DNA from: Marsupella aquatica
Taxonomy: Eukaryota; Plantae; Marchantiophyta
Direction: 5' to 3'
Assembly (NCBI GenBank): GCA_973895155.1
Contig: OZ316891.1
Span: forward strand, 2,989,801 to 3,053,800
Length of the DNA stretch: 64,000 nucleotides
Below are positions 3,177 to 64,000 of the stretch, piece after piece (the first letter of the stretch is position 1; the number at the start of each line of letters is the position of its first letter). A program made the translations under genes and the position numbers. The notes under the pieces are model-generated. The model did not search any database. It had not been told where the DNA came from and saw nothing but the letters and a program-made list of their open reading frames with translations.

Positions 3177-3222
3177 GACGCTTCCCCAGCGTCGAGTTAC
3201 AATGGACGCTTTTCACAGCGTC
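3177..3222. repeat. GACGCT-N5/6-AGCGTC palindrome cluster upstream of the extra ORF
   Basis: gacgcttccccagcgtc (3177) and gacgcttttcacagcgtc (3205), with degenerate copies at ~3036-3115. Confidence 0.8.
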
Positions 3223-3357
3223 CAATGTAAAAACTGAAAGTAACTAAAAAAAATAAAAAATAAAAATATGCCGAATACTTACTAGGGAGGGTCACTAATT
3301 CTAACTAAGTATAACTACCGCCCTCCACTTAAATTGCAACCTGTCCCAGGTGGAATT

Positions 3358-6330: not shown

Positions 6331-6333
6331 TCA
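6325..6333 (-). promoter_or_regulatory. Putative stop-codon readthrough signal UGA-CAA-UUA
   Basis: Minus strand reads ...CCC TCC TGA CAA TTA ACT TCA TCA TCG GAA GTG GGC CCA..., matching the stop-CAR-YYA consensus. Gag and pol are in the same frame. Confidence 0.8.
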
Positions 6334-13845: not shown

Positions 13846-14190
13846 CACTAGAAGAATCCGAGGTGAACTGAGACCGCAATATATGACTCATTTTGGCTCA
13901 TGTGACTTCATTGTGACTCAACGTGACTTGACCCACGCTGTGACCCTTGGAGTTGCAAAAGTTGAGACCAAAAAATGGAAGTCACTATTGATACTGGGCT
14001 TTGCAACTTGCTTGATACCCATTTGTGACTGATCTGTGACTTTATTGTGGAGTCTAGCCTTGTTTCGACGTGACTGCAATATGACTTCAGCGAGTCACAT
14101 CGTAAGTCACATACATGACTTACCCGCATTCAACAACGACTAGCGTGTGACTATTTAGTGTCACAGGAGAGACCAATGGAGACCCTGGCC
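13846..14190. repeat. TIR and subterminal TGACT/AGTCA repeats of CACTA 1
   Basis: CACTA start followed by many tgact/tgacc/agtca copies in both orientations. Confidence 0.8.
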
Positions 14191-14700: not shown

Positions 14701-17700
14701 TTATGGATCCTCTATGAACTTGCTTGGCCATAATACCAAAGAACCTGCAGCATCTCCAAGTGTCTTTTGAGGAGGATCATCATTTGTGTTTGGAATGGGA
14801 AGGACAGCTTTAGGTTTCACTAGTAATGTGACTAACACTACTGAATAACCTGGGGGAATCCTCTTGCCATGGAACGTTGTGGAACCAACCTGCACTCTGG
14901 CAAATCCTACTCGTGTTCCACTCTCATCAACAACTAACAAGCCACTTTGTCCCTCAGCATTAGGTGCTTTCCCCACTTCCACCTTAGATCTTTCTGCCAG
15001 CACTGTTCTTGGAGGTTTGTATGAAACCTTTGACGTGACTCTGCTCCCACCAGCAGACTTGCTTCGTGTGCGCATGCTTCCTCTCTTCACAGTAGTGAAG
15101 CTAGGCTCAGTAGGTTCCTCTGTTAGGACTGTCACAGTAGCAGGTTCATCACCTGGGAGTGTCATACCAACTAGCTCTTTGGTTGGATTTATCTCAACAA
15201 GAGGCACACCTGTCATTGAGAATGATACATTCTGCAAATCATTTATCTCTGCAATGGAGTCAAGATCTACATAGCATGAATCTGGCTCAATGGTATCATT
15301 GTCATGCTTGCTGATATCCTCATTTGCCCCAACATTGATATCATCCACTCCCTTGCCAATGTCATCCTCATCCAAACATGGTTGACTGCCCTCTGTCAAA
15401 CAAGTTGCTTGTACAGACTGCAACTTTGTTGCCTCTAAATTACAGCGAGTATTTGCCAGGTTCTCATACTTCTTCTCTGTAGCACCTGTCTTATTCTCTA
15501 TGGACACAACAACCACAATATATGTTACTGAAAATAACACATTCAACAAACAATGTCAATTCAAACTATACATTTAATAATCATATCCCACACAGTTGTA
15601 AAGGCCTTACCTTCAAGCCTACATGTCGTTGGCATGCCAGAAGAGTGCATCAACTTTGCCACCTCAAGTGGTGATGGTGGAACTCCTGCAGAATTGGAAT
15701 CAATTTTATCTCTCACCGACACAACAGCTTCCATTAATGTCTTGAAGTTCACATGGAACAAGTCAGTCAATGAATTCAAACGTTCATTGATCTCTGGAAG
15801 ACATGTTTCGACAGCCTTCAAACGACCACTTATCTCTGTAAGTGAAGATCCACCTCCCTACATGACACAGGGGTATAGGTTCAATCACTCCATATGAAAT
15901 GTTGGGCAATATATGCACAATCAATGTTATATACAGTGTACACCTGAAATTCAACGCAGGTCATTCAATTACCAATCAGAACTCATATAACTTACATGCT
16001 TGGAGGATTCAGATGCACCCTCTTGAGCCCAGGTGTTCACAATTTCAGCCCTCAACTCTTCTTTTGAAGGGCTTTGCCCCAATTGGGCTTTCTGCACATG
16101 CATGGCAAACACAAGTTATCGATCAATATTCAGGGAACGTACACTAAAAAACAAAGTTTACATGTATGGGTTTACACTAAAAAATAGTACATAGTGTAGC
16201 ATAAATTACATAGCTAGGCCATTCATTCTTACCAAACGTTTAGCTGTCGGTGCAGTGCCGGTCCTTCCTGTCAGATTAGGGTTCTGAACACTCAACCTGG
16301 CCTCGGTCATCTGTGAACTCTTCTTTTTTGAAGCATCTGTTACAAAATAAGCTACTAACCTTGCCCACACTTTATCATCACAACTGGCTGGTGGAGGCAT
16401 ATCTGGCTTCTCCCCACCTTCCTTCCAAGCCTTATGCATTCTCCACCTCTCTTGCTTGATAATTTTACCTGCTGTACTCTCTAGGCAACCTATGTCCACG
16501 CCATCATCACTGCCCACATAATTCCATTTGGCAGCAACATTTTCACATACAGTCTTCCAATCTTTTGGATGCTGTTTTTTAAAATTAATAACACTCACAT
16601 CTAACCAACGCAATACTTCAGCTTTCAAATCAGCATGCCATCGGTTCTTGCGAGGACACTCAGCATCCACCCATTGTCTCTCATTCAACTTTACGTTCCC
16701 TTTCTTTGTCACCTCCCCTCGTGCACTGCTCTCGGTAGTACTGGGCGTTGTATTGGCCACCCCTTCATTCACCCTACCTGGGGTTCTGAAGCCACCTGGG
16801 AAAATACAATGCCATTCATGCTTGAGAACTACATATAGCAGAATGGATGACGGCAACATTCAATGCTTCACTTCAAGAAAAATTCTTCAAACATACATAC
16901 CTGTAGCTCTGCCTGTAGATGCCTGTGCAGGGACTGCACTCTGAAATTGTTGCGACCCTGGACCACCTGTCCAGCCTAGTACAGGGGCCGGATGATGTCA
17001 CTTTCTAGGTATGTGTGTGCAAACATATGTACTGAAAACTAAGTACAAACTGTAGGAAAACAACTGAACATTCACCGACATACCTGTCCCCCTTCCGTGC
17101 TGCATCTGCATAGGGGCATTAGTGAATACTTGAGTCGATGGTTCGACTGTCCAACCTGCACACATACATTTTCTATCATTATACATGTGCAGAGTCCCCC
17201 CCACGTGAATGGACTCCACATATAATGAGTTCTTCCATTGCTGACAAGATCAGACATTACCTGCTCCTCTTCCAGCGTTTGTAGGTACTGTATTTTGATA
17301 TCCCTGCCAATTACCTTCACCACCTTCCCAACCTTGTTCATTCCACGACCCACCACCATCCTCCCAACCTGGTTCAACCCATGTCTGTCCTTGTGGACAT
17401 TGGAACTGATCATTACTAGCATTTGCCCAATCAGGTTGGGCAGAATCTGCATGCAATGGCAGGTGGACAGAATTTCATGTTGTCTGAATCCAATACATCC
17501 CAAACAATGTCAAAAATTGATATGCAGTCTGAAATTCAGGAGTGCCATGCCTTCACAAAGAACTGGCATATAGATATATACTCACATCCCCACGGTTGAG
17601 GTGGACGTCCATACCCACGAGATTGTGGGTTTGGACCTGCTCTGCCTCTACCACGGGCATAACCTAGAGCTTGCCCCCTGCCATAGTATTGGGCACCAGC

Positions 17701-18563: not shown

Positions 18564-21500
18564 TCATGGCACAGGCACACTGTTGGCATCTGCATCTCTG
18601 AATTCGCCTCCTTCAGCAAATGCATCTACCCTTGTCACAGGAATGAAGTCCCCGCTATCATGAACTACAGGCACTTGGTCTGAACGCCGACGATCAAAGG
18701 CACTATGAGAGTGTAAATGAAACTCAAGGTTTGATCCTTCCATCCGGCGTTGCCTGGCCTGTTTATGACACACTACACGCCAACCTGGGGAGTCTTCCAC
18801 ATCCAGGAAGAAAGCTTGCTCCACCTGACTAGGAAACACAAATGGCTCAGACCATTCGGGCAATTTCCCTCTGAAATTGGCCAGCAAGAAACCGTCGTTG
18901 TCTCTCTTCATGGTAGCCCTGTTAGCAAGCCAATCCTGCCGCACCCATGAACCTTTCATAAGAATCACAGGACTGGACACCGCCCCATAGTCCAGAGCCC
19001 ATATGTCAACTAATTCTCCCACATATCCCATCTCCATCCAGGCCCTGTTGTGATTGTGGCTCTGTTGCTCAAATACAGTGATGAGCCCGCAGTCATTCGT
19101 CACCCTGTAGGCACTGTCACCATCCTTCACTCGGAAGTGATTCCCATATGCTCTCATCCGTTTGTAAGTCTTCACTTTCAGGCTAGGGGCATTAGACAGT
19201 AGGTAAACATCTGCATCCATGTCTGGGTGGGTCTCGTGATGCTCTCTAATTGCCACTCTGATCCACTCCATGAAACCTGGAAAAGTTGTTCCTGCAGTGG
19301 GATGGGCCGCCTTCAATGACTCATACTCCCTGAACGAACAACCACACAGCATTAGCTTGGGTAAACATGAACAGGCTGAAGGAGAAAACCACACGAACAC
19401 AACATTTAAGCTCATGAACTGGATTATAGCACATGTATGCACTCACTGTATCCAGGGTTCCATCACCACAGTGTTGTGCAATACAAAGTCATGTGCCAAG
19501 TCTCTCATAGATATGGTCAGGTTCTTTGTGGTTGCAGCCCCTTCCAGTACTTCACCTACCACCCCTTCCTCCTCATCAGAATTCCACACCCTGGTCTTCA
19601 CATGCTCATATTGTGCTATGTATTCGGTCAGAAATCCCAGAGTCTCATCCTTGATGTAACCTTTAGCCATGCTTGCTTCAGGTTTGTAATATGTTCTCAC
19701 GTGACCTTTGAGTAGCTTCATGTACCGTTCCAAAGGGTACAACCAACGAGCACTCACAGGCCCAAATTGGTGTAGCTCTTCCACAACATGGACAAGTAGG
19801 TGGGTCATGACATCAAAAAATGCGGGAGGAAAATAAATCTCCAGGTCACACAGCACCTGAGCGACATCTTCTGTCAGTTGTGGGAAGTGTGTTTCATCCC
19901 AAACCTTCACACAAATACGACGAAACACATCACTGAGTCGCATGATCACAGTACGAACAGGCTTCTGCAACAGGCCCCTCAGGCATAAAGGCAACACCTG
20001 TTGCATCAACATATGGTAGTCATGGCTTTTCATACTACCAAGCTTTCTAGTCATGATATGCTTCTTGAAAGCACTGCCATAGTTTGAAGGAACCTTCAAA
20101 GAACTCAACCTCTGCACAAATAGTTCCCACTCTGTGTCTGTCAGAACATAGGGCGCTTGGTACTTCAAGAGCACATCAGCTCTGTGGGCATGTGGCCTCA
20201 ACCAAAGATGGGGTTTCATTCCCCTCTGTTCAAGATCCAATCTCACTGAACCAGTGTCTTTCTCTCCACACAAGAATCTGAGTAGACTCTCACAAATATT
20301 CTTTTCAATGTGCATAACATCAATGTTATGTTTGCTTGGCTCAAACTCCTGCATCGTTGCAATGCAAAAGCGTCAGGAAATGCCTCAAGTTTAGTCTCTC
20401 TCTTCGAAATGAATGCACATGCTCTGAACCAAAACATGTATCCCAATTAGCATCAACTCCAAGAGGCTTACCCTCCAGTACTTGAGCTCCAAGTCCAATA
20501 TGCTCAGTCTTTTTACACCATATCGCTTTATTGGATCACTCACTCCATCTTCCCTGCCCCCTCGTTTGATATAGTCATCCCTCAGTGCTCCCCACTGCCT
20601 GATCTCCTCTTTGGTCACTCGTGCCGGGGGTCCACGTTGCTCAATCTCATTGCCAAAGTGTGCAATCAGTGCCTGTCTTTCTCTGTAAGGGTGATCTGTC
20701 TTTAGAAAACGACGATGGCCCATGTATATCACTTTCTGCAGGGCTCTGGAGTACTCACTGGTGACATTGCGCCCACAGATAGTACAAGCACAATATCCTT
20801 TTGTTGTTTGGCCTGATATCATCCCATGGGCTGGGTAGTCAGCTATAGTCAGAATGACAATGGCTCTAAGGATGAATGGGTTTAACCTCCCAAGCCTCTG
20901 TAGGACATCATATGTGAGAACTCCTTCCTCCCAAAGATTTCTCAATTCCTCCACTAGGGGAGCCAGAAACACATCTATGTTGGCAGATACAGCACTGTCT
21001 GGCCCTGGTATCAGTAGGACCATCAGAACAAAAAATCGCTTTGTAGTCATCCAAGGAGGAAGGTTATAATTCAAAATAGTTACAGGCCAGCATGAAAATT
21101 TGTTGTTCTTGTCTCCAAATGGGTTTACCCCATCCAATGACAGCCCAAGTCTGACATTCCTCGGCTCAGCAGCAAATTCGGGATACATCTCATCTATGAG
21201 TTTCCATTGCCTTGAATCTGCAGCATGTCGTTGTAGCCCATCATCACTTTTCTTGTCAGTTGCCCAAGTCATCATCTCCGAGATGGCACGGCTTCTGAAC
21301 ATCCGCTGAAGTCTGGGAATGAGTGGAAAATGACGAAGTACCTTGGCGGGAACCATAGACTTTCCTGAGTTCCGATACCTGTGCTTCCCACACTTAGGGC
21401 ATGTCAACGATTCTTTATACTCCTTTCTGAAAAGAACATGCCCATCAGGACAGGCATGGATCGAATCATAGTTCAATCCAAGATTAGATATGCATCTTTT

Positions 21501-22295
21501 TGCCTCGTACATGTTCTTGGGCAAAATATTACCATCTGGTAGCACAGTTGTTCGCAAGAATGCCAACAACTCAGAAACCAAAACGTTGGGGACATTGTGG
21601 TTGCCGCAAATGTTCAGGAACATGATGACAAATCCCAGTTTAGAACATTTGCTACCGGGGTACAAAGACTTCCTGCCTTCCTGTATTTGCAGGGGAGAGC
21701 CAAACATCCCATCATGCCCAGGGGTTTCCTGCCCTATCTCAAACTCATCAAGAGGCTCTTTGACAGGGGGCACACTTGCATTTGCAACCGTATCCTCTTC
21801 ATTGTCCAGCCCATCATGAAATGCATCCAAGTCTTGGAAGATGTCTCTCACCATCTCTTCCACATGAATTCCTTCATCACGTGGTGCTGCCTGAGCACCA
21901 TCCCGTTGGAGAGCTGACAACCCACAGAGACCAGCTACAACATTTTCAAATGCACCAGGCAGAACCTCACTTGCCCGTCTTGCAGCATTGGCAGCATCAA
22001 ATTCTAACCTCCACTCCTCGTCGGAAGAATCTTCCTTTGCAGGATCATTCCAAACTCGATGTCGTGGATCTCTTCCATGAACCGCGATATGCCGCCAAAC
22101 CTCATTCAGACCCCTGGTACGGGATCCTTGGCAGATTGCACAAGGACATCTCATCCTACTGGCTCCTGAAAGTCTGGTTCGTAACCTTTCACGCTGCCAA
22201 AGCTTATTATCATGGCGTGATATCCTTGTGGGATGATGCAAAGGCAGTGCCTGTGCCCTGGGCTGGGTCTGGGGAGGGTGGTGACCAGGGTGCAT
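18564..22295 (-). CDS. TnpD-like DDE transposase of CACTA 1 (exons ~22295-20472, 20348-19447, 19329-18564)
   Basis: N-terminal CPC..C..H..H, IHACP..C..C, LSLDGVNPFG, NYNLPPW, ADYPA, DVMHIEKN, KSHDYH, FPPAFFDVMTHL, WLYPLER, EPFVFPSQVEQ. Canonical GT-AG introns keep the frame; no disabling lesion seen. Confidence 0.93.
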
Positions 22296-22728: not shown

Positions 22729-23601
22729 TCACTCTGATTCAGAATCGCTAATGACCCATTCCTCACTTGTTGTCTCATAGTCCTCTCTGTAAGGATCCTG
22801 ACCCTTCCGTGGCCAGGCCTCAAAAAGATCATAGTCCATTGGGTTTTGACGCTTCCCAGCTGCTACTGATTCCACAAGCCAAGCATATGAAACCACAAAC
22901 ACATTATGGGACATGACATAAAAGCGAATGTCTCCCTTCCCAAACTTGCGGCAGGCTTTGGGATATGACTTAGTAATGACATGAGTGGTGTCCTCTGTTA
23001 TATTCTCCTCCACTGTCCCACCTAGGTCAAGCACTGTGGACTTGTACACTTTGCACTTAACCTCTCCAATTCCCGCCTCCACAAATACCATGCTCAGCCC
23101 TTTCAGAATGGGGGTTGGTTGCTTCGTCTCCTCAGCCAACATACTCTTCAGCCTTGTAGAGCTCTGTCCTTTGTTGAGTACAGGTCCATATTGGAGATCA
23201 GCAAGCCGTGCCTTTGCTTCCCAGACTTCTTGTTCAGCCCAAGCTGATGCAGTAGCTTCTTCATCCTCCCACAACTCATATTGCTCAGTATCCTGTACAA
23301 TCTTATGTGCTATGGAATCTGTGATCCAAGAGGCCTCAACTACTTTTAGGCCTTGCTTAGTAATTGCAGAATTCATGTAGGACCATGACCACTTCTTTAT
23401 CACTGATAGCCATGTCCCTGCAACAACATGTGTAGTCTCTGGAGTGATGTCTTGAACTACAGTGCCATGGAGCTCAGAGAATCGTTTCTGTACAGTTGGC
23501 CAATGCACTTTGGTCAACCCATGCTGGCCATGGACCAAAATCGCTCTGACCCCTGTAAACACTGCTGGGTGGTCACACTTTCTACGTTTACCAGGCTCCA
23601 T
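22729..23601 (-). CDS. Tandem BRCT-domain protein (DNA polymerase lambda-like BRCT), CACTA cargo
   Basis: Two repeats: VFTGV..HGTVVQDITPETTHVVA..VVEASWITDSI..YEL and ILKGL..LGGTVEENITEDTTHVI..VVSYAWLVESV..YDL. Intact, intronless, ATG at 23601, acidic tail. Confidence 0.85.
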   Translation of the reverse strand: MEPGKRRKCDHPAVFTGVRAILVHGQHGLTKVHWPTVQKRFSELHGTVVQDITPETTHVVAGTWLSVIKKWSWSYMNSAITKQGLKVVEASWITDSIAHKIVQDTEQYELWEDEEATASAWAEQEVWEAKARLADLQYGPVLNKGQSSTRLKSMLAEETKQPTPILKGLSMVFVEAGIGEVKCKVYKSTVLDLGGTVEENITEDTTHVITKSYPKACRKFGKGDIRFYVMSHNVFVVSYAWLVESVAAGKRQNPMDYDLFEAWPRKGQDPYREDYETTSEEWVISDSESE

Positions 23602-24193
23602 GTACACACACCCTACGTGATGACAGTGAATTTTGGAAGAATGGGTTCACCTGACAATACAAGGACAACAAAATTCCTGCTTTTTGAGTTGATCTGGCCC
23701 ACTGGTGCTCAGGTCCGATTTTGATAGGTACAAGGGATATGTGAACAATACGTACTAGGCACCTGCACGGATGCAGGACATTGTTTGAATATATACTACA
23801 AAATCCATATCCGTGGTGAAATGAAGTGCAACCAACTTGTCATGGCACATACATATTTTGTTGTAAAGGAGGATACATTCAATGACAAACTTATAGGGCA
23901 ATTTGATTAATTGCATGCCTGATAATTTATACGCTTACAATTTAGAAGTCCTGTTTTAATTTAGCAGTGTGATGAAAGTGTTTATGAAAATGACCACTCA
24001 GCCTAAATACTTCCAAGAAGGCTTGTAAGGATAAGTTTGTATAGGCATGTACCCAGCCACTGACGCCAGAGCACAAGATAAGTGCTGCCTATATAAACTC
24101 GCCTACCCAACTCCTTTTCAAAATTGGAATCTCTGCAATCTCAAAAAATAGTACATCCACATCAGGTGCACTGTGCATGTACAATGTTCAGCT

Positions 24194-24874
24194 TCACAGC
24201 CAAGATATGTGATCTCTCACAGGAGTGCGCGAGGTAGGATCAATGGCATGGCGATGACAATAAAATATCCATCGATCAACACCATGTGCAGAGTGATCAT
24301 AGATTTCTCTGTCACAAGCATAACCCTCTGCTTGATGATCTTTCAGGCAATGATAGTGCCACATAGTGGGACACCTAGCACAGTGGACTATGTCAGTCCA
24401 GTAGTCATCATCATGCTCACCACATGCCTTGCACCTATGAAGTGGGCAAGCTGTGGCATGAGCAGGCAAACACTCAAAACAGAAAAATCTCACACAAAAA
24501 CGGTCTGGACATTTCCTAACATTTGCTGCAGCATCAACAGAGCCCTCATAGGACCCCAACTTCCCACACTGTGCACACTTAGCCTGCTTCTCCAAACAAT
24601 CAGTGCACATCCAGTCTCCCTGGTGTGTTGACGGGAGGCCCACCCCTGGACAGTTGTTTTCTGCAGCAAGGTCAGACTCCGGGTTGAGGTGGAAATGCCT
24701 CATGCAAGGGCCCTCACAAATGACCAGGCCCCCACCATCGTCACAAATGGCACAACAATGAGCTGCCTTCTGGAAAATCTGACTTGCAGAGAAGTTAGTA
24801 GCATCTGCCCCAAGTACACCTGTGTTTCTCACCTCTGTCACACGCTTTTTGGCTTGAATTTTAGGCCGTGCCAT
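24194..24874 (-). CDS. EDM2/NSD-type triple-PHD finger module, CACTA cargo
   Basis: CAICDDGG..CEGPCMRHFH..C..GL..WMCTDC..CAQCGKLGS..C...C..CPLHRCKAC..CARCP.MWH..CL..FYCHRHAID....TPVRDH follows, motif for motif, the PHD cluster of plant EDM2 (CAICDNGG..CEGSCLRSFH..CPLHKC..CRRCP..YC..H.ID...TPVRDH, from memory). Intact 226 aa. Confidence 0.85.
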   Translation of the reverse strand: MARPKIQAKKRVTEVRNTGVLGADATNFSASQIFQKAAHCCAICDDGGGLVICEGPCMRHFHLNPESDLAAENNCPGVGLPSTHQGDWMCTDCLEKQAKCAQCGKLGSYEGSVDAAANVRKCPDRFCVRFFCFECLPAHATACPLHRCKACGEHDDDYWTDIVHCARCPTMWHYHCLKDHQAEGYACDREIYDHSAHGVDRWIFYCHRHAIDPTSRTPVRDHISWL

Positions 24875-25572
24875 GCCTGCGCATGAGATAGACTCTACAA
24901 TTTAGCAGACTGCACAGAAAGTAAAATATATTTAGCATTTAAGGTACAAAGGCATTTGCTACTGCAATGAATTGGAATGGCCACACAAGGATGCAGAGCA
25001 CACATACTTTTGGTATGTTGAGCCCACACACAAAACTGATCCCCTAATACAATTTCTCCACCAACACCTCAATTTTAATTGTGGCTATGATTCACCAAAG
25101 GAGATCTGCAACAACATTTCATGCATTTGAATCACATACAATAGTCGTGACATGTAAAACAGGCATTCTTCGAAGAGGATTGGTATGAAGCAGTGTCATA
25201 AGGGTTGAAATTTATACATCCTAAATAGGTTATGATAGTGGCTGAGACAAATAAGTGAGGCATAAATCATTTTGCATATTATCACATGGCCCATTAATTC
25301 ATTCAACGTTGCAATGTTCACCAGGTTAAAGCAGTCATGAAAGCAGTCTTTCAATAGAGACTTTTATGCGAGTTTGCTAGCCTCTTAAATTAGGATATTT
25401 TGCTTAGTGCAGGCATAATAGGATATAAGTTATGTACTGTTGACCCTAAACCCTGGACCCAAAATTGCTCATACATCAAAATTTTAAGTAAATATCCTCT
25501 GTGTTGAAGTCAGAGTGTTAAGCTATAGGTCAATGGTATCTGGTCTGTGCATGCGGTGTGACAAGTGGTCCT

Positions 25573-26022
25573 CTAGAGCATGTGATCCAAACATGTGTAG
25601 ACACCAAAGTCACCGGTGGTGGGGTCTGGGAGGGCAGGACAAGTGACATCACCAGGCACACTGCAGGATGGCAAGTGGTTCCAGATGATACATTGTGCTC
25701 TGTGCAAAAATCGGCATCCAAGAGAACGGTCATCCAATTCTGGGCCAGAAGCCCTACAGGCAGGACAGTCATATTGGCAACTGTGTACACACCCTTGGCA
25801 CCTAATTTGTGGCGGGTCATGTACAAGAGACACAAATACCAAGGATGTCGGGAAGGGTACTGAAGCAGGTAGAGGCCGGCTGTAGTTGTTCCTAGAAACA
25901 ACAGGGTACTCAAAGTACCATGCAGACTGGGCTGGAAGGATCCCAAGTCTGACATACTCAAGGCGCAACATCTCTGCCTTGCGTGCAAGTCGCACATGTT
26001 CAGCGTTGCGGGTCCTCACCAT
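25573..26022 (-). CDS. Small Cys/His-rich PHD-like zinc-finger protein, CACTA cargo
   Basis: ATG-started 149 aa with CQGC..C..CPAC..C..CIIWNHLPSC..C..YTCLDH spacing. Same strand as the other cargo ORFs. Confidence 0.55.
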   Translation of the reverse strand: MVRTRNAEHVRLARKAEMLRLEYVRLGILPAQSAWYFEYPVVSRNNYSRPLPASVPFPTSLVFVSLVHDPPQIRCQGCVHSCQYDCPACRASGPELDDRSLGCRFLHRAQCIIWNHLPSCSVPGDVTCPALPDPTTGDFGVYTCLDHML

Positions 26023-27030
26023 AAGTGTTGCTTTCGTTGTGATGTCCTCTGTTCACGTCCTTTGATGAGCAAGGTGAGCAGGAGGTCGACTTGCCTCGCC
26101 AACAGCAACCACCTAAACTAATCAGTTCCCACTCATTGTCTTGGTTCCAACTACAGGTCATAGTATACACATAGCATGAAACGTGCATAGTACATATTTG
26201 ATTCTGAGTTTATGAGTTTCCTAAGACAAAGAGCTTGGTGATAAACCCATATTCTCGACGGACATGTATATCAATCATATTAAACTCCTGTTTTTTCATC
26301 CAGAAAGACCGAAAGTCTCACCTTGCAGGTTGCAGCAGAGAGAAAATTCACTGGTTGTCGTGTTGTGCAAGTGAACCTCCACTGATGCCCCGGTGTAGCC
26401 CCTCAGATGCAGGTGACACTTACCAACTCCCAAGTTGCCTGGTCTAACAGAAAATGCTTATATCTTCAGAACTTTATAGAGCAAGTACATGATCACATAC
26501 TTCTGGATCTATTCATATTTGGAACTCTTGCCAACTACAACTCCCATTATGCACAAGCTCACATCAATAGAGAAAGATACAGAATGCATACTTACTATGG
26601 CTCTAAGCACCTTCACTACCTTGTTGAACCCAGTCCTGAAGTCTTTTCAGCGTGTTTGTTGTGCTGTCTCCTTTGGCACCCAACACCTTAGTCCTTGATG
26701 TAACAGAATGCGATTTTACAAGTTAGATGCTTTGGAACCTTCTATGGTCTTAGCTGAATTGATGTCATCGTAAGTGGTGAAAGACAAGGAAGACGAAAGC
26801 TGGTTGAAGAGCTGTGGACAACACACTAGCATGAAGTGCTTCAACCAATCCACTGCCAAACGGAACTCTTACACAGTCACATTCTTTTAGTAAACAAAAA
26901 CTCAGTCAAACTTCAGAATCAAAGTACAGACTCTGAAGGACCAAAGGAGGATGTTGTGAGTTTCTCTGTTGTTTAATGTGTTACCCTTCTAGTTTCGAAG
27001 TTAGCAAATGCTGAATAATGTGTCTACCAA

Positions 27031-27373
27031 ATCTTCAAAAAGAAGCCCACCACAATTAAGAACTTCGGTATCTGGGTCCACGTATCAGAGTCGTACAGGT
27101 TATCACAACATGTACAAGGAATATTGTGATACCACAAGAAACGGAGCTGCAGAGCAGATGTATGATGAGATGGCTTCTTGTCATAGAGTTCGGTTCCCTT
27201 GCATCTAGATCATGAAGACTACGACAGTCCCTGTCTCTCTGTGCAAGCGAGAAAGTACCAAGCAGTTCCATGATTCAAAGATCAAGTTCCCCTTGACGTA
27301 CTGCAAGATTCAACCTCCATTGCGAAAGCTAAAGAAGACTTACAAGGCCACCAAGCCCAACACAATTGTTTGA
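27031..27373 (+). pseudogene. RPL18A: Captured C-terminal fragment of 60S ribosomal protein L18a (eL20)
   Basis: Translates [16 protein letters not shown]/(frameshift)[70 protein letters not shown]...KTYKATKPN, matching the plant L18a C-terminal two-thirds. One frameshift and one stop. Confidence 0.92.
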
Positions 27374-28724: not shown

Positions 28725-30027
28725 CAGTTCCTAGAAATGTAGTGAACCTTAAGGTCGTCTGTTCACCCCCCCACCCCACCGCCGGGCACAAGGCATGTTC
28801 TGATACAGGGAGGAGCAAAACAATCATGTCAAGCAAGAAGTGTGGAGAGACCAATCTGTAAGCAAAAATAGGGGAGAACATACATACATCAGCAGCAACA
28901 GGAAACAAGAAAGATGAGTTTGGAAAGCATCTTAGGGTCGGGGACATCACTGCAACACCGGGACTTAGGATATGACTTGTTCTTAATCTGTTGATAGCAT
29001 CCGGTAGGCCGGCAACCCATGGCAAAAGGGCAGAGCAGCAATAACAGTTTGAATCTGACGGATGAAGCTCCAGGCAAATGAGCTCCAGGCGATTGGGTGC
29101 ATGATTGAGCAGGCGATTGTAACAGCAGGCACCAGGTAATTTAAAGGAAGCAACATTCGGCAATGGACCTAGGCAGCTCACAAATTTTGCTTAGCAGCGA
29201 TGTCACCTAGACCCTAAACACGCAATGCATACATCACCTAGACAACTATACTTGCAGTCACGAGGTGAGTCCGCGTCGATAGGGGATTGCAGCCTTACCT
29301 GTGCCGATGTAGCACCAAGCCGCCCTAACTGAAGCTGCGTAGCAATCCGCAGCAATCGCTCAATGCAAAACAAGTCCCCGGTTGGCCTTGCAGCCCGATC
29401 ATCCACCTTCAACCCTGCCACCAAGCAATGAGCTCTCCGCTGTTGCTCACCCTAAACCTTCAACACTCCCGCAAAGTTGTGTCTGCCCACAAGATTGGGT
29501 GCGTGATTGATTCGGCAATTGTAACAGCAGGCAACCGCAATCGGTCGTAGGTCATGGATACACAAGCTCCAATGTGCTCCCTTTAGCTGAAACAATACCA
29601 GTTGTCGCTCACCACCAACACTTTCAGCAACAACACATGTTTGTTGTAGTCTGCACCTTAAACCTTAGCCATGGGGTGGTCAATCAAGTTCCGCAATGCC
29701 TAAAACACCGACCACCTGACTTACATGAAATGTGCACACAGCTAAGCTCACCTGCAGCTCACGCCAACCACATTGAGACAACTGAAGTGAATACTGCCGT
29801 AGCTGAACTCGACTCCTCGCGACTCTTTCGCGCCTCCGTAGACTGCCTTACTCAAGTTGTCATTTTTGTATATTGAATCCCTAAACAACCCAATAAGTAG
29901 ACAATTCATGCACGTAGCTCCTTCAATGGTTGACAGTGAATATATTCAGAGTCAAAAGCAAAGCTTGGACATGTGACTATGCTAGACGTTTACACGGGGG
30001 AGGATCTAGTTCACTTATGAGACCGCA

Positions 30028-30112
30028 TCTCAAACAGCTCAACTCTCTGTAACCGTAGCTCAAAGAGCTCAACTCTCAGTGACCCCAGCTCAAACAGGTC
30101 AACTCTCAGTGC
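30028..30112. repeat. Tandem repeat, 30-bp unit x~3
   Basis: ctcaaacagctcaactctc... repeated with period 30. Confidence 0.8.
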
Positions 30113-33100
30113 CCGCACTTGAAACTCAATTTGCTGAAACTCAGAAGGTCAAAGTGACTATTGCATGAGTAAGAACACCCTTTACCTCACTGGTGCCGAA
30201 AGCTCTCACAGGGGCTGTCACATTTCTCAGAAGTACTCTGTCACTAAACAAGAAACATGTGAAACTTGACTCCAGCTCCGGCTCCAAGTAAACAAGCTGG
30301 ACTGCCGCGACAAGTTCCTGGTTCCTAATCCTAGTTTGCAGCTGAACGTTGAAGCAACTCTCATAAAGCTTTTTATCCATTGGCAATCACTACCTTATCA
30401 TTTCAGCCTTATTATCTCATTGTGCAAACCTGGATGTCACGGGGCATCTTGGGAGGTGAATGCAGCTAAGCAAAAGCTACAACATCTATTGCAAGCCGGT
30501 TCATGCAGATGGCAAGTTAAAGTCAAGCTTGAAATACACTTACAGCTGGCCGAATGTCAATAGCGCTCACTGTAAAAGGTTGAGATGTTGTCAATGACGG
30601 TAGCGCATTTTCTTATCCCTTCCACCTCACCAGTTGTAGCCCACACTCATGTTTAGAAAAATTTGCGCTGGTGAAACTTGGCCGGAACCTGAGTCAAAAA
30701 CAGCTTCACAGCACAGAGAAGTCAACCAAACTTGCAGCCGCGAGGTCACATAGCAAAGATAGGGGATTGCAGCCTTACATGGGCTGATGCAGCACCAAGC
30801 CGCTCAAACTGAAGCTGCGTAGTAATCCGTAGCAGTATGTGAAGCTGAGCAACAATCCCCCGCTATTGCAATGTGATGGCAACTCAATCTTCAACTCACT
30901 TCCAACCCAGCTCCACTTGAAAGCCTCCTAGTCGGACTGCAATGTACATCCAAAGGCGATCAATGCAATGTCTCCAGGCCTGGAGTCCCACTTTGCAAGA
31001 ACAGTCCAAATGCACACCAAACCGCAATGAGAAGCTCCTGGTTCTCGATCCCAGGTTGCAGCTGAACGTCAAATTGACTCTCCCAGCTTGAAGGAACAAG
31101 TGCCTCCTACAGTGCCTTGCGCAGTGGCAAACGCCTCCTGCAGTGCCTCCCACAGTGCCTATGATCAATGCTAAACACATACAATGGCTGAATGTTGCCT
31201 ACGACTCACATTCTGTTTTGTCTATGCAACACCCTAAACTCGCTCTTCTTGCCTCCTACTACTCCCATTGCAGTCGGGATTGCAATTTGTCAATGCAGCT
31301 TCAGCCTTAGTGATCGACAAACTGCCCCCTTTTTTCCCTCGCAAAGAATGCGCGATCAGCTCCTCGTCCGCAAATCCAAAGGAATCCAAGGCGCAATGGG
31401 AGTTGGCGTGAAGGAATCCATTAAACCCTAAACCTGGTTTAATGTGCCCATATTTGTTTTCAACCGTCAGATCATCCTTTGATTAAGTTTACGACCGTCA
31501 GATCCTTGCTTGATTAATTAAGGTAAGGACTGTCACAAGTTCTTATGCTCATTCCATGAGCATAGTGTGTGGGGTGCCATTATCAGATATGTCTAATTAT
31601 AACATGTAGACATGCCAAGTACATGGAGGTTCCAGCTGCATTCCCAGTTCTTGGTGATTTTGAACCTTTAATTAAAGGAATCTAGATGGAACAATGTGTG
31701 GAGGGGGTACATGACGGTATGTATGCATGGCATGGCGTGCAATAAGTAAAAATAACCTGCCCTTGCATATGTGAGAGTTAGAGATAACCAAGGAGATAAC
31801 TTCAAATGTACCCATTTAGACACAAAAATGAGTCCAATTAATATTACATGCATGCCATTGTGGGACCCTAGCTAGTTGGGATTATTTTGTTATGTTGTAA
31901 CACTTGTAAACTTGTGGCATACATATGTTGTAATTCAGTCTACTCTAATGTAGAGTATATATTTGAGATCTGTTAGCATTGACATTGACCAAGGACCTTT
32001 ACTTACCTTGTAGAGTTGCGTACTCACACAATATCCCGAGGGCATCTCCTTTAGTCCCATTGACAACTAAGAAAATTAGGATATATCCTAAATGGTATGT
32101 GTTGGGCGGGGTCAAATGTGGTTAGATTGTGGTGTTAAACCCTAAGGCTCTCTTACATATATAACGCTCTATTGTAGAGGGAGTCACTTATACAACTTCA
32201 TTCTTGTTGGCTGAACTTAGTTATAGTTGCAACTTCCCCAATAGTTATAGAAATGACTTCCCAAGAATTCTCCAAAACTCAGTCCACAACTTGTAACTAT
32301 AATGACACCCAAAACCTAGGAGTCACAAATTTTGCAAGGTCTCATTAGAGTCACTTAAGGCAGGGTCTCAGAATGGGCCGGTTTCTTCTAGTGGAGAGAC
32401 CACTTGACTTGGCTATTGCTGGATGACACCTCCAGCGCTAGCAACAAAACAAGTGGATCAGCACCAACAGGCTGAGCTAAATGAATCCAACATTGCACAT
32501 CTCACATTTTGGACTTTTTAATGAAGTGGGCACCTCACTGCGCTGTCAACCATAGCTCAGACACACCTCGCTACAGTGAGCTATCGATCGACTTTGTGAT
32601 TGCATAGTAAATTTGGATCTTGCTTTTTCAGTTCAGCCATACATGGTTTTGTCCTTATACTTTCGTACACGATGACACCTCCAAAACTAACTAAGTTAAC
32701 TTATTTTTTGAAGACTGATTAAGTTAATTGCAATTTCAAAGTTAGGGCCTGCACAAGGATGTCTGTGTTTTTTCCACTTTGAGTGAATCATGTGTATGGT
32801 AAGAGACCATAACTATGAAAGACTAAAGATTCCAAGCAGACTGTTGCCTGGAGTAAAACAACATGCATGCATTGGAGTATGAAAATACATATATGGCTCA
32901 AATTATGTATTTGTTTCTGCTCTTAACAAAGGTCATCTTAAGTCGTGTGCCTAACCCATACATTTGTACAATTACAAATGTGACTGGAAATTGGGCAGTT
33001 GAATGATATCATTCTCAGTCCCCACCACTGTCACGTAAGATACAGGTATTCGAATGTGAATTCAGGCTATATGCAGACAAGACAATATAAAGGGCCACAT

Positions 33101-33377: not shown

Positions 33378-34303
33378 ATGCCTTCCAAATGGAAGCGTGA
33401 ACCTGTCCCCCTTCCAACTTCCCAGTGTGCTCCCATCTTCCAAGGGGTCAGAGTTTTTTTTGTCCCAGGTATTCAGAGTGCAAGATTGGATATCCTTAGG
33501 AGAAAACTCATTGAGTGTCATGGTACAGAGACACAATCTCAACTACAGGACACTGAAGTCACCCATATTATTGCAGAAACATGGGAACATTGTCTGAAAA
33601 TGGCATCTTGGTCAATTTTCTATGACAAAGTCTTCTTGAGGCATGTCAAAATACTTTCAGCAGAATGGATGTCTGACTCCCTTAGAAAAGGGAGTGTCCA
33701 AGATCGTGATGATTACAATTTGTTTGAGAGCAAGTACAATAGCGTCCAAATGATGAAAGACAGTTGAGATTGGCACAAGGCTCGTAGAATTGCAGGGAGA
33801 GATGGGAGTAGGGTTCCGTCTATTGACCAGATCACAAAAGTATACAACAACATTATCCCATATGAGACAGAACCCATCCCAGACCGTACCATGTTCAGAG
33901 GTGTGAGGGCTGTTATACTTGACAAGTCTATCAAGCCATATAGGGTCTGTCGTTTCAAGAGGGAGATCAGTAGAAGAGGTGGTACAGTGATTGAGAAGCT
34001 CACTAATGAGACCACCCATCTCATTGCTCATTCATATTCTAAGGCATGCCGAGAGTATGGAAAGTCCACAGTACGATGGCTCATCACACATGGGCTGCGT
34101 GTGGTCTGCCCTGAATGGGTCAGGCAGTCACTTTCAACAATTATGCGATTAGATGAGCATTAATATGATTTATATGAAATATGGCCAACAAAGCCATTCA
34201 TTCCCTAGACGACCCAGAATATGTTACTTTTGAGTTCCAGACCACGGATGAAGAGTTTTTTGATAGTGCGTATGATTCTATTAGCCCTAATGATTATGAA
34301 TAA
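33378..34303 (+). pseudogene. Tandem BRCT gene of CACTA 2 (premature stops)
   Basis: IFQGVRVFFVPGIQSARLDILRRKL..VTHIIA..ILSAEWMSDSL..YNL and MFRGV..GGTVIEKLTNETTHLIA..VVCPEWVRQSL..*YDLYEIWP are in one frame. Stops at 33765 (TGA) and 34161 (TAA); a further lesion near 34206 precedes an acidic tail like that of 22729-23601. Confidence 0.82.
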
Positions 34304-34711: not shown

Positions 34712-37700
34712 ATGGATCAGGCAAATGAGGATGGACAGTTGGGGCAAAGGAATCAGAGACATACCAATGAACTGCAACTCCCTTTGCATCACCCACTGAG
34801 GATTACACGTCATGACTCCAAGTTGTGGAATAGAGAGGTCCTTAGAGCAAGCCGGGGCAGAAATGCCCGGATGAGATGCCCCTGCATGCAATGTCGAGGA
34901 TACCACTCGATGACCCTGAACCAAGTGCATTCTCATCTTCAAAGGCATGGAAGACATCCAATCCGCAGGGTGTGGAATGTGCCAGAGGAAGAGGATTCAT
35001 CGGATGATGAATGGAGAGCAGATTTTGAAAATGTGAATACAGCAAGACGCTCTGCATTCTTTCATAACGTCACTGGTCATGCAGGCAACAATGCCGAAGA
35101 TGAGTATGTTCCACAGGGAGGTCCCGAGACTTCTAATGAGGACGGGGCAGATGTCCCTAGGATGGTTTCAGACATTTTTCAAGACCTGGATGCACTTTAT
35201 GAAGATGCAGAGGCACAGGGGGACGAAGAACCATACATGCATGTTGCAGATCCATCGGACCAAGAAGAGTTTGACATTGGAGAAGGAGCTGGAGATCATG
35301 GTCAATTCTTGGGAACTGGGGCCTACTTGGAGGAAGCTACGTCCCCATTGTATGGTGGTGCAAATTGCTCCAAACTAGGGTTCATAGTGATGTTCCTCAA
35401 TATATGTGGATGTCACCGTGTGCCCAACATATGTGTAACAGAGTTGTTGATGTTCCTACAGAGGACAGTACTACCCGCTGGAAACATTGCTCCTAAGAAC
35501 ATGTATGAGGCAAAGAAGGTGATGAGCAAACTTGGTTTGAATTATGTGTCCATCCATGCATGCCCAGATGGCCATGTACTTTTCAGAAAAGAATATGCTG
35601 ATTGCCTATCCTGCCCTATCTGCGGAAAGCACAGATATAAGAACGTGGGGAAGTCAACTCAACCTGCTAAGGTCCTACGGCATTTCCCTCTCATTCCAAG
35701 ATTGCAGCGCCTCTATAGGTGTCCATCCATTTCTAAGATGATGACTTGGACCTCTGATCAGAAGAGTACAGATGGTTTGCAACGTCACGTTGGAGATTCC
35801 AACCACTGGAAGTACATAGATGAGAAGTGGCCGGACTTTGCAGCAGAGAGCAGAAATGTGAGGTTTGGTCTAAGCCTTGACGGTGCTAATCCTTTTGGAG
35901 ACAAGAACAACGTGTATTCTTGCTGGCCAGTGACTTTGATAAATTATAATCTCCCGCCTTGGATATCCACCAAGCGTTTTTTTGTGATCTTGTGTCTTAT
36001 GATTCCCGGCCCAAACTCTGCTATAAGTGCAAACATAGATGTTTGGTTGGCCCCTGCGGTGGAGGAATGGGTTACTCTATGGACACATGGAGTTATGACA
36101 GTTGATGCACTTTGTGGACCTGGTAGACCGAGGACATTCAACCTACATGCAATGTGTGTTAATTCAATAGTAGACTACCCTGGACATAGCATGATATCTG
36201 GGCAGGTAGGGAAGGGATATATCTGGGTTGCACACGATGTGGCCCAGATGTTACATCTGAACGGTCCGTTTCCTTGGGCATCAAAAGGCAGACAATGATG
36301 GACACATCATTGGAGTATTGGAAGGTAACATTTGCATATTCACTTGTACTCAGTGAACCTCTTCAGATCCTATGCACAACAGTTTTTAGTTCTTGTGTCT
36401 GAACCTAATTGTGGCAATCATGCGTACTTCATGGGTGCAGGATTTTGAGCCAAGCAAACATAACATTGATGTAATGCACATTGAGAAGAATGTATGCAAA
36501 AGTCTTTTGAAGTTTCTGTCGGGGGACAACGATACTGCAGCAGTACGAAAGGACCTTCAGGAGAAGGGCATTTGTCCTCAACTTTGGCTGCAAGAATCCC
36601 AGAATAGGCCGGGTGTGGTTTTCAAGTACCAAGCTCCATATGTTTGCACCCAGAATGAGTGGAACACAATTTTGTCTAGGCTGAGTTCGTTCACAGTACC
36701 CTCTGGGTACGTTGGAGCCTTTGCAAAGCATATAAGGAAGAAGAAGTTGGGAAGCATGAAAACTCATGACTTCCATGTTATGATGCAAGACATTCTACCA
36801 GTATGTTTGAGGGGATTGATGCAAAAACCAGTTCGTAATGTCATTTTGAGACTGTGTCAGATCTTTCGTCGTATTTGTGTGAAGGTGTGGGACCCTACAA
36901 CATTTCCTCAGTTAAAGGCAGATACTGTGTGTGTGCTTTGTGACTTGGAGATTTATTTCCCGCCAACATTTTTTGATGTCATGACTCATTTGATCATCCA
37001 TGCGGTTGAAGATCTGGGCCACTACGGCCCAGTGAGTACAAGGTGGATGTATCCGATGGAACGATACATGAAGTTGCTAAAAGGCCATGTACGTACTTAT
37101 TACAGGCCTGAAGCAAACATGGCTCTCGGTTACATTCAAGAAGAGACCTTGGGGTTCCTTACAGAGTACATGGCTGGTGTAAACAGTGTTAGGAGCAGGG
37201 TGTGGGATGCTGAGGAAGAAGAGGGGGTGGCTGGAGAGGTTCTTCAAGGCGCTTTTAATTCCTTGCAATTGTCTGCAGAAGTTTGTGATGCAGCACACTT
37301 ATATGTCTTACACAATACAGTCATGATGCAACCTTGGTGGCAGTGAGTACTCATGTTTCCGCACCCTCCCTGCATTCCTTCTTTATTCATATCCATTTTG
37401 GTAGGATATGTACATTGTATTGAGAAATTGTTCTCATTGTCATCATGCAGGGAATACAATGTGCAGAAGGTCGCCCAATTAGGGTTAAATCACCAGGCAT
37501 TCCCTACTTTTCCTAAGTGGATCAGGACAACAATTCGAGAGCATAGCAGGCAGAACCCAAACATGGATAGAGATGTTCTCCTCTTGTCTGTGCCTCCCAG
37601 ACGTATTGTACAGCGGTATAAACGGATGAAAGCATATGGGAATCAGTACCGTGTGCATGATGATGAGGACAAGCATTTAGTGACATATAATTCGGGGGTA

Positions 37701-38207
37701 ATATCTGTGTTTGAGCATATAGATGCTCAGAGCAACAGGGGCTGGATGGAGATGGGATATGTTGGGGAGTTGGCAGACATCTGGGCACTGAATTATGGGA
37801 ACACATCACAAAAAATCATCCTAATGAAAGGTTCATGGGTGAAGCCAAATTGGCATGGGCCAAGAGCGACCATGAAACGGGATATGGATGGCTTTCTAAT
37901 GGTCAATTTTAACCAAAGACTGGCAGAATGGATGGAGCCTTTTGTGTTCCCAAGTCAAGTCGAGCAAGTATTTTTTTTAGATGTGGAGGAGTCTCGTGGT
38001 TGGCGTGTAGTCTGCCATAGCTCACCTAGAGTTCGAAGGATGGAGGGTACTAAAATAGAGTTCAGTTTGGATGCACATGGGGCCTTTGAACAGCCGGCAG
38101 TAGACGTTGTACATCGGGGCCAGGGGACCAGGGAGTACATCCCCTTGACAGTGAGACAGACTTATGAGGGAGAGGTTGAAGCTGACATGGACGAAGATGA
38201 TGAGTAG
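34712..38207 (+). pseudogene. TnpD-like transposase of CACTA 2 (frameshift plus internal deletion)
   Basis: Same motifs and intron positions as 18564-22295 (LSLDGANPFG, VDYPG, DVMHIEKN). Frameshift at ~36220 and loss of the segment between ..SERSVSLG and IKR.. (~36278) that holds YMGHRRFL in element 1. Confidence 0.9.
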
Positions 38208-41539: not shown

Positions 41540-44050
41540 GTACCAAATACAATTTGAGACTCAAAATGTGAAGGATTGTTTCAATATATGACCACAATTT
41601 GGAGTACATGATGTTGGGTAATACTTTTTTTTTATGGATTGCTCATATTTTGAGTTATTATCATGCCATTGTTAGTTGGATTGGTGCTTTTGTGACATTA
41701 ATGACTCAGTCTCGACTATGAATGACAACATTGTCTACGGAAACTAGTGCGGTCAATTGAGTGTTATCAATCACTCACGGAAAACCCCATATGACTCGAA
41801 CTAAGTCATTCTAAACACTTATGTTTGACTGATGTATGGTTCCAATACTTGACCCTCTAGTCACTAAAATGACTAATGACACTAGTCAATAATATGACTA
41901 AGTTAATCCAAGTCACCACTTTTACGACTACTAGTTGCAAGAACGACGTCAGTGATTTTCAGTCATACATGACCGGTTTTAGTCATAGTCAGTCGTATTT
42001 TATGGTAAAAAATAGGGGGTATTTCTACTAGTGAGATTAGGCCGGCTACGTATCTCATGACCCGATGAAGGATCTGTCCAGTATATGTGTGTAAAATGTT
42101 AATAGTAGTAGTAGGAGGTTAGCAGCGTCCCATGCTGCTAAGCCGCAGAAACGGCCTCGCCGAGCACAAAACCTGCAGGAATCGGCTTGTGCGGGGGGGG
42201 TTTCTTGGGTTTGGGGAGCCATGGGACGCACCACACCTTGCATTACAATCTCTCTTGCTTTTGTGTGGGCCAGTCCTGGGAGTAGGGGCAGGAGAAGAGC
42301 ATTTTTGCCAAGACAAGGTAAGTTTTCAATGGACATGACTCTCCTTTTGTGTTCATTCAACTTCAATTTCTGGAGGAGCGTTTCTGGTAAGGTGAGCATT
42401 TCTGAAGTTTTCAATTCACGTGAAGGAAGAGGGTTCTGTTGTTGACAGAACGGTTGACAGAACGGAACATTTAGCTTGTTGATTGGTTGATAGCTCCCAT
42501 ATATGATGGGATAACAAGCCCACAATGCCTCACAATGACGTTCATGGTTCCCAAAATTAGCCAAATTGGTTGTTACACTCATTCCAGCTTCAAATTTGGG
42601 TGAAATTTGTCGCTCTTGTCCCATCCCTTGTAGTCTCGTATCACGTTTGTTAGTTGAATCTAGAATTATGATGACATCAATCACACTCAAGCTCTGCACT
42701 TTTGGCACTACCATCAGCGTGAAATCATAGAATGCCGTGATATGGTTTCACAAGATCAAAACTACACGGGTGTACTCCTACTACCGGTATAGTAGTAGCG
42801 TACAGAGTTTCTTCAGGGACAGACATGACAAAAATGTAATTATTGAAAGCAAATATATGGCTGTCAGCATAGATCATGAGAGCAGGAGATATTTAGTCAA
42901 AATTTCATTGTGAGTGAGGTCGAGAGCTGGCAAGGAGGAAAGAGGACCAAGAGCTCACTTGCCTGTGGCTCATTATCGACACAGGGTAACCAGACTCTGG
43001 TTGACATTTTTCTTTCATTAGATACACTGCTGTGAATTGCATGTGAGCTTCTTCTTGCTTTGCCACGATGTAATCCTGCTGCTGAGCTTGAAATTGTGTC
43101 TCAAAGTGTGTTGGCTGGGCTTCAAAGCAGGGCGTTTTGACCCTTATCACCCCTACTTGCAGGCATGACTTCTTCACTGACTAGTCCCTCACCTTATTAA
43201 CTTGGGCATCATGTACCATTCCCCCTCCCCATTCCCCCTCCCTTGTACAATTGTGATGGTGTAACTATGCTAGCTACATGTCAATGGCAATTATAGTGTT
43301 GTCTCCAGTTCGGTAGCCTGTCTAGAAATTAAAGCCTTCAGGGGGTGATTTACTTGCCTTCTAATTCCTTTCAAAGGCAGGTTTGACTCAATGGCTTCTC
43401 GACAGGACTTGGAGAATCTTGCAAAGGCATATTTTGGGAACATAATGGAGGCAAATTAAAGGATTACTTGACATACCTGGAGTCAATGTTTTCTGACAAA
43501 CTTTGGCCTGCTTGGCAAGCCGAGATGTCAACTTCCAAGAACCTAGGTCGTTATTCCCAACATCTTAAGCAAGAGATTGACAGGTTGAAGGCAAAAAACC
43601 GCAAGGTTCATGAAGACAACATTATGTTGGAATCCATGCAATCTGAGGTTGTTCAGATATTACAAAAGAGAGTGCACAAACACAAGGAAGTAGTTGTGGA
43701 CAATGGAGGCAATAGGAAAATTTGCTAGGAACACGTGCACCTTTGCTTCCAATTTCCCTGAACCTTTCCAAGATTGTTGCCTACAACATAGATGCAGATT
43801 GGACAACTGTGGGCAAGGGCAAATGTGCACTTCCCTTGGTGTCTACTACACCCGACATGTGCAACCCTATAGGGCCAACAGGCATGGCCAGGATGCTATT
43901 CCTTTGAGGCCTTGAAAGAGAATTTGTGTAGAGAGTGATAGTCTTGGCCTTGGGGCTTGACTATAGAAAGAGTAATGTTGTATTTATGTGAAGAAGAGTT
44001 GTTTTTGCTTTTGCTTGGACATACTTTGTAGCAACTCAAAACTTTATTAG

Positions 44051-63506: not shown

Positions 63507-63537
<31 letters not shown>

Positions 63538-63957: not shown

Positions 63958-64000
63958 AGCAGCACCGAGTCTCCCCCACCAGATGTCACTCCCCCGAGCT

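Follow-up and report, generated by a model that had tools for sequence, protein, structure and literature searches.

A triple-PHD gene retained in a CACTA transposon of the liverwort Marsupella aquatica, with an N-terminus resembling histone H3

A CACTA transposon of the liverwort Marsupella aquatica carries a gene for a short EDM2-type protein with three PHD fingers, and this gene is probably a functional accessory that the transposon has retained. The gene lies in the window (i.e., the whole stretch of 64,000 nucleotides analysed here, positions 2,989,801 to 3,053,800 of contig OZ316891.1, assembly GCA_973895155.1) at 24194..24874 on the minus strand, where it encodes 226 amino acids in a single open frame that is known from DNA alone. 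A gene order shared by two elements, a clade of relatives with a common ligand swap and short loops, and sister copies free of common indels argue that the PHD gene is an old, retained accessory and not debris. More tentatively, the protein may be a reader of the histone H3 tail that carries a histone-mimicking tail of its own and acts against silencing by the host.

The triple-PHD protein and its short relatives

Three NSD-type PHD models of Pfam match the protein in order (residues 39-93, 96-140, and 148-180; E values of 5e-5, 4e-3, and 7e-5), none reaching its curated cut-off (23.9 < 27, 23.2 < 27, and 17.9 < 23.9 bits). Alignment with EDM2-type proteins places all 24 Cys/His positions of the three-finger NSD-type module between Cys41 and His209 (24248..24754, minus strand), which would form six zinc sites, with the ligand roles assigned by the alignment and the structure model containing no zinc. 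Nineteen of the 24 positions are invariant in all family rows that reach them. The His of the host proteins is replaced by Cys132, a change that is common to 13 of 13 aligned family rows and that, judged by the alignment, preserves the zinc ligand. Approximately 23 residues that follow PHD2 in EDM2 (a helix insert) are absent from the protein and from all family rows displayed, and the frame ends four residues after Thr-Pro-x-Arg-Asp-His, the motif with which the cluster of EDM2-type proteins closes. The initial annotation of this DNA, made from the sequence letters, had described a 226-residue triple-PHD frame with shortened loops, an end just after TPVRDH, and a Cys for an expected His in CVRFFCFEC, and each of these features is confirmed.

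The annotation had also proposed modelling the structure, and the protein folds in prediction (pLDDT 85.9, pTM 0.80, from a 45-sequence alignment), residues 1-24 being the sole disordered part (pLDDT < 50); this run supersedes a poor earlier fold from 6 sequences (pLDDT 45). Foldseek searches with the model find PHD/PZP matches that are all partial (TM by query at most 0.28). The family profile matches 18 PDB entries, led by PHD1-3 of NSD3 and NSD2 (E value of 4e-12) and followed by AIRE, CHD4, and PHF21A, with no EDM2 structure among them. The fingers of NSD1/2/3 are thus the closest solved relatives by sequence and share the identical three-finger ligand pattern, but the transposon protein has no SET or PWWP domain, and NSD-type rows lack the closing Thr-Pro-x-Arg-Asp-His motif and score 88-91 bits, compared with 112-151 bits for most EDM2-type rows. 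Together with the phmmer search, in which the top-ranking long matches are all EDM2-like, the profile and PDB searches bear out the EDM2/NSD cluster as the best match, as the annotation had supposed.

An exhaustive search with the protein yields 249 matches, and the seven with E values below 1e-30 are, every one, short proteins of the same type. Five relatives drawn from 123 candidates have lengths of 217-245 amino acids and identities of 37-82%, and about 20 short family proteins were seen altogether, many of them partial or frame-shifted. All 16 short rows in the tree form one clade (support 100/99) on a long stem. A recognisable end is present in 10 of the 22 relatives listed, and all 10 stop within 6-14 residues of the closing His motif. 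No member of the family was found in a metagenome scan, where the 11 loci recovered are EDM2-like transcripts or unrelated PHD genes, nor among 40 candidates from prokaryote genomes or 51 candidates from viral contigs.

The N-terminus and a proposed function

Residues 2-11 (24842..24871, minus strand) are basic and NLS-like, as the initial annotation had noted; they are also in register with residues 1-10 of histone H3, with identity at H3 positions 1, 2, 4, 7, and 9, which points to a mechanism other than the one first suggested. Summed over 20 family rows, the best H3-motif score is 338, compared with 185 +/- 16 for shuffled N-termini (maximum of 254 in 5000); of 300 scrambled motifs, none attains 338. 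After removal of three near-copies, the score is reached by 2, 1, and 1 of 1500 scrambled motifs with 0, 1, and 2 first letters fixed, respectively, and none of 145 other collected proteins reaches the score of the query at residues 2-11. Single sequences match less strikingly (p = 0.035 for the query alone, p > 0.05 for 10 of 20 rows), and all of these values belong to a comparison picked after the sequences had been seen, among rows that share one ancestor. Within the family, Arg2 (14/17 rows), Lys4 (16/17), Ala7 (11/17), and Lys9 (11/17) are kept, while Thr3 (2/17) and Ser10 (0/17) are not. Thr3 is in most cases replaced by Pro, a residue expected to impede strand pairing with a PHD finger, and in one subfamily the H3-like motif is internal and therefore has no free amino end. 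Additionally, 9 of 19 host EDM2-type proteins checked start with Met-Ala-Arg, so these residues may be inherited. The proteins with this start, which is that of histone H3, include P0014, P0018, P0019, P0020, P0038, and P0045 from outside the seed plants, where it could be an old self-binding motif or chance. The 18 PDB matches of the whole-family profile contain no histone, and a 10-residue motif is not expected to score in such a search. A basic NLS accounts for much of the N-terminal pattern, and the N-terminus may be merely a nuclear signal; that it is a selected mimic of histone H3 is a candidate reading, held at somewhat less than even odds on the sequence comparisons above.

Residues of PHD1 bear on what the module might bind. 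In AIRE-type fingers, Lys4 is bound with the help of an Asp at the second position ahead of the first Cys; the residue in this place in the transposon protein is His. All 13 rows have Asp or Glu at position 54, positions 45-46 are mostly acidic, and these residues align, partly by eye, with the acidic residues of BAZ2B that bind H3 Arg2 and Lys4. According to the accessible portion of the BAZ2B study, those acidic residues are needed for H3 Lys4 and Arg2, and a lysine-rich, H3-like linker lowers the affinity of the PHD finger (PMC5663869). In both proteins, one chain combines a lysine-rich stretch resembling H3 with a PHD finger that binds, or is predicted to bind, H3; BAZ2B, however, is a host protein with an internal linker and measured binding, whereas the stretch described here is N-terminal and known from sequence.

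By analogy, the triple-PHD module is predicted to bind the N-terminus of histone H3 via the acidic residues of PHD1, and the H3-like tail would gate the protein's own PHD1 in the manner of the BAZ2B linker. Alternatively, the tail would soak up host enzymes and readers of H3K4/K9. In either case the protein would help the element resist host silencing, with a benefit to the element in trans.

The CACTA elements and the shared gene cassette

The PHD gene is enclosed by an 18.5-kb CACTA element (element 1), as the initial annotation had surmised in placing it in a transposon. The terminal inverted repeats of element 1 begin and end at 13846 and 32393 (left, 13846..13875, plus strand, with subterminal hexamer repeats behind it; right, 32364..32393, minus strand) and are alike in 13 of 14 and 22 of 30 letters. 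No 3-bp target-site duplication was found and the flanking letters differ; since the flanks consist of a retroelement ORF on the left and a second CACTA element on the right, later rearrangement is likely. The genes of element 1 follow one another on the minus strand in the order Cys/His ORF, PHD ORF, tandem-BRCT ORF, Tnp2 transposase, and TnpA-like exons. The tandem-BRCT ORF (22729..23601, minus strand; Pfam BRCT E value of 2e-13, in two stretches), located between the PHD gene and the transposase, is intact with 290 amino acids and has two intact relatives elsewhere (P0169 and P0170, 60% and 54% identical). A Pol-lambda origin for this gene was not borne out (E value of 0.1, atlas scores < 0.9). 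The Tnp2/TnpD-type transposase (18564..22295, minus strand) comprises three open stretches with GT-AG-like introns and matches PF02992 (E value of 2e-70), PF13960 (5e-28), and PF13952. The TnpA-like exons (14701..16859, minus strand) match PF03004 below its cut-off (E value of 1.5e-4) and are 39-45% identical to element 2. Between 28400 and 31500, element 1 is non-coding, with direct repeats of 67-115 bases and a 30-base tandem, and sister contigs skip 29355-31028, a stretch that varies between copies.

The left end of element 1 severs, 6 bases before its ATG, the second of two related gypsy-type retroelement pieces (395-9381 and 12017-13839, minus strand) that have extra ORFs after pol. Elsewhere in the window are decayed Harbinger-like transposase pieces recognised by eye (49221-50549, plus strand), with identical 140-base direct repeats nearby at 44050 and 47742, and a large inverted duplication (60851-64000, 80-87% alike) of a retroelement-like ORF region, adjoined by an 18-base coding tandem (59229-59433).

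Element 2 follows directly after element 1 on the plus strand, has a transposase 53-65% identical to that of element 1, and shares the order PHD, BRCT, transposase. It contains a remnant of the tail of a PHD gene (32395..32475, plus strand), recognised by translation, in which only the last residues are left and which is severed by the end of element 1; a tandem-BRCT gene (33378..34205, plus strand) with two internal stops and about 30% identity to that of element 1; a transposase with a frame change (34712..38207, plus strand); and a right terminal repeat (42020..42033, minus strand). The PHD remnant and the same cassette beside the end of element 1 indicate that element 1 inserted into a diverged cousin, within its PHD gene. 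In run X1, one contig links position 32394 to a 59-base piece resembling 24366-24424 on the opposite strand; provided that the loose-end rows belong to that contig, the closing motif lies at a spacing of 148 bases, equal to that in element 1. Location in a transposon is established for the PHD genes of elements 1 and 2 only.

The proposed function can be extended to the cassette as a whole, which would then be a long-kept chromatin cassette consisting of a captured triple-PHD reader with an H3-tail mimic and a captured tandem BRCT, the mimic acting as a decoy for writers and readers of H3K4/K9 or switching the reader on when methylated by the host; this wider model is possible, with the balance of probability well against it. 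An unlikely but serious alternative is that the PHD protein is a cofactor of transposition, which would direct insertion or set off cutting by tethering the transposase to nucleosomes of a chosen H3 state, in a manner like that of RAG2 or RAG2L, while the BRCT protein would recruit repair and the N-terminus would be an NLS or an auto-inhibitory gate. The fixed order of the cassette in two diverged elements and the intact BRCT relatives are consistent with such a role, as are transposase motifs common to RAG1/Transib and EnSpm (PMC12730594, accessible portion). In RAGL transposons, the RAG2L protein contains one or two PHD fingers, one of which binds H3K4me2 (PMC10629977, accessible portion); RAG2L, like the present gene, is the second gene of a cut-and-paste element of the wider EnSpm/Transib group. 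In RAG2L, however, a kelch core binds the transposase and the PHD fingers are of an unrelated type, whereas the PHD protein of the CACTA elements has no obvious extra domain, like the RAG2 kelch, for holding a transposase. Moreover, transposon gene order requires no physical partnership, and the location of both elements in repeat-dense DNA gives no clear sign on targeting.

In a third reading, the PHD frame would be the terminal exon of a gene for a larger transposon protein, spliced, for example, to the 149-residue Cys/His-rich ORF that lies intact upstream (25573..26022, minus strand), so that the H3-like N-terminus would be internal. An AG is situated two bases upstream of the ATG of the PHD frame, donors at 25613 (7/9 of the consensus) and 25652 permit open in-frame joins, and introns are invisible to gene calls on short contigs. 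On the other hand, the start Met and the residues that follow recur among relatives at 37-82% identity, the splice would cost the upstream ORF its last Cys/His pair, the BRCT ORF can be joined only through weak donors with loss of the last two ligands, and no longer family member appears in the exhaustive search or in a weak search of 340 candidates. An internal exon is therefore quite unlikely; the stand-alone nature of the protein claimed in the initial annotation holds as regards its single open frame, on the basis of DNA, with the upstream splice feasible on paper. The Cys/His-rich ORF itself has no Pfam or PDB match and is not matched by the PHD alignment either (probability 0.1%). By eye it has a PHD-like Cys/His spacing and a basic start, and it may be a third accessory gene; in runs X1 and X4 it falls within the bins whose summed contig depth is highest, although these depths are not taken as copy numbers.

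Origin of the PHD module

The module may descend from an ancient capture of a paralogue of the EDM2 type whose PHD cluster stands at the C-terminus. In a ranking of 141 other proteins by the family profile, the top place goes to a protein whose first finger is duplicated, and ranks 2-5 are liverwort-type paralogues (150.7, 150.5, 140.2, and 130.4 bits), including those of Calypogeia and Marchantia (Mp1g03210). The best EDM2 proper scores 129.5 bits, three further liverwort-type paralogues are at ranks 16, 22, and 38, and the NSD-type rows are at ranks 124-129. The liverwort-type paralogues share five signature columns with the family, compared with one for EDM2 proper, and end 8-52 residues past the closing motif, compared with 362-1118 for EDM2 proper. 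The mean charge before PHD1 is -7.2 in EDM2 proper (12 proteins) versus -0.3 in the family (16 rows), and the liverwort-type paralogues likewise lack the acidic flank. Trees are less clear: a grouping of the family with the liverwort-type paralogues has a support of 43/74 in a 33-row tree and is absent from a 73-row tree (73 of about 170 collected sequences, P0021, P0026, and P0076 having been lost at module extraction). AU tests, made on the 33 rows, reject the family as sister to seed-plant EDM2 (p-AU 0.022) and do not reject it as sister to Marchantia EDM2 (0.14), to all land-plant EDM2 (0.135), or to the NSD-type outgroup (0.36). Mean identity fails to separate the possible donors (32.4% for the liverwort type, 30.7% for EDM2, and 31.7% for the NSD type).

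The paralogues of this kind (e.g., Mp1g03210, Mp4g03050, and Calypogeia CAM6087769.1) resemble the transposon family in their C-terminal cluster, their shared signature columns, their non-acidic flank, and, in four of seven, profile scores of 130-151 bits; they differ in having 400-540 residues in front of the cluster in six of seven and in keeping the His at the swapped ligand. No study of them was found in the literature searched. Because they already end close to the closing motif, the C-terminal end of the transposon protein is probably inherited and not trimmed to purpose, which makes the precisely trimmed reader of the initial annotation doubtful. Short EDM2-type PHD proteins also occur in grasses and in Marchantia (P0031, P0044, P0099, P0148, L002-L007, and P0046), several of those from grasses ending in the last residues of EDM2 and that from Marchantia (Mp4g03050) having 280 amino acids; reader-only forms have thus arisen more than once outside the CACTA family.

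That annotation had further suggested a possible decoy of the EDM2 pathway; as a dominant-negative form of EDM2, or one that hijacks its complex, the protein would compete for H3K9me2 chromatin or divert ASI1-AIPP1-EDM2 towards the introns of the element. The module is of the EDM2 type and has EDM2/ELP1's atypical PHD cluster, long PHD1 insert, and closing motif; EDM2 binds H3K9me2 and works with ASI1 and AIPP1 (PMC9910501, PMC7529245), and some transposons, e.g., Mu1, are repressed by EDM2 (PMC3632883), according to the accessible portions of these sources and of the wider literature on EDM2 domains and partners (also PMC9292364). A position next to Marchantia or all land-plant EDM2, moreover, is among those that the AU tests allow. 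A decoy is nonetheless very unlikely, given the rejected nesting with seed-plant EDM2, best matches that lack the C-terminal part of EDM2, the missing acidic flank, and an identity to EDM2 modules of about 31%; no link of the module to AIPP1 or ASI1 emerged from the analysis. EDM2/ELP1 proteins have 800-1600 amino acids and run on through a methyltransferase-like C-terminus, whereas the transposon protein is intronless, carries the His-to-Cys swap, has lost the helix insert, and lacks the RFD (no Pfam match, where EDM2 rows have PF12047), acidic, PGR, and methyltransferase-like domains. The ASI1-AIPP1-EDM2 complex (AAE) generally favours transcripts that extend in full length through heterochromatin, so blocking it would be of no clear help to an intron-bearing element; the literature searched yielded no paper on this complex in bryophytes. 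The accessible portion of a hornwort study reports transposons marked by H3K9me1 and H3K27me3 (PMC11982613), and in a bryophyte host the mark that matters may therefore be one other than H3K9me2. The weakest of the early ideas is that the protein aids processing of the element's own transcript, as it is a lone reader without any of the other EDM2 domains.

Retention of the PHD gene

Four public runs contain no indel at a share of at least 5% within 24150-24920, in keeping with the view in the initial annotation that sister copies should not be freely disrupted. Indels are found just beyond the PHD gene, at 24141, 24156, and 24926 (10% share; among 12 of 43 rows). Among the 40 variant rows examined out of 115, 39 lie inside the frame and none alters a zinc ligand. 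Without codon 134, there are 16 synonymous and 20 non-synonymous variants against 143 and 535 sites, giving a ratio of about 0.33 for a selected subset (40 of 115 variant rows). An apparent stop at 24475 is discounted, since the contigs that show it are also changed at 24473 and 24474, and the three changes together encode Ser when read by hand. Three single contigs skip portions of the frame, and run X6 covers just half of it.

The appearance of unselected cargo is illustrated within element 1 by a captured and decayed fragment of a ribosomal protein L18a gene (27005..27373, plus strand, antisense to the genes of the element; PF01775 E value of 2e-15), which has a stop codon and a frame change and in which sister copies have 1-base deletions at 27078-27079; the free decay expected of neutral cargo in Pack-CACTA elements is seen in this fragment and not in the PHD gene. 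That the PHD gene is likewise a useless passenger in a recently amplified family would fit the capture of host DNA by element 1, the youth of many copies, the broken state of some relatives, and the destruction of the PHD copy of element 2, but is highly improbable in view of the synonymous excess, the lack of common indels, and a family whose members diverge by up to 63% yet retain the start, the end, and nearly all ligands.

Relation to known systems and significance

Several transposon factors offer a precedent for the proposed role. In the accessible portions of the sources, element-encoded or captured factors that counter silencing include VANC and the Ulp1-type KIU (PMC13317346) and TnpA of Spm (bioRxiv 10.64898/2026.08.24.746577, in whose accessible text PHD and BRCT do not occur), and fungal EnSpm elements contain TET/JBP genes (PMC12730594). 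Like the PHD gene, these are accessory genes, often captured and long kept, that act or are predicted to act on silencing; they encode DNA-motif binders or enzymes, however, whereas the PHD gene encodes a predicted histone reader with an H3-like tail. PHD, BRCT, and EDM2 are absent from the main text of an Arabidopsis atlas of transposon products (PMC13547354), and no paper on a PHD or BRCT gene borne by a CACTA element was found in searches whose coverage ended short of subscription journals, supplements, and repeat libraries (Repbase).

Even if the putative mimic is an NLS only, the PHD genes constitute a conserved accessory gene family of which no description was found in the searches made. 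The protein is a natural minimal EDM2-type module, and comparison with EDM2 could reveal the residues that set mark specificity; as a single-exon product of 226 amino acids, it is small enough for direct expression and assay. The fixed order of PHD, BRCT, and transposase genes offers a testable model for the coupling of chromatin choice and repair in a cut-and-paste element. The counter-silencing factors of plant transposons characterised so far recognise DNA motifs, and the proposed function, if true, would represent a route of anti-silencing at the level of histones, unlike that of VANC and TnpA, and would make the element an example of a plant transposon that mimics a histone.
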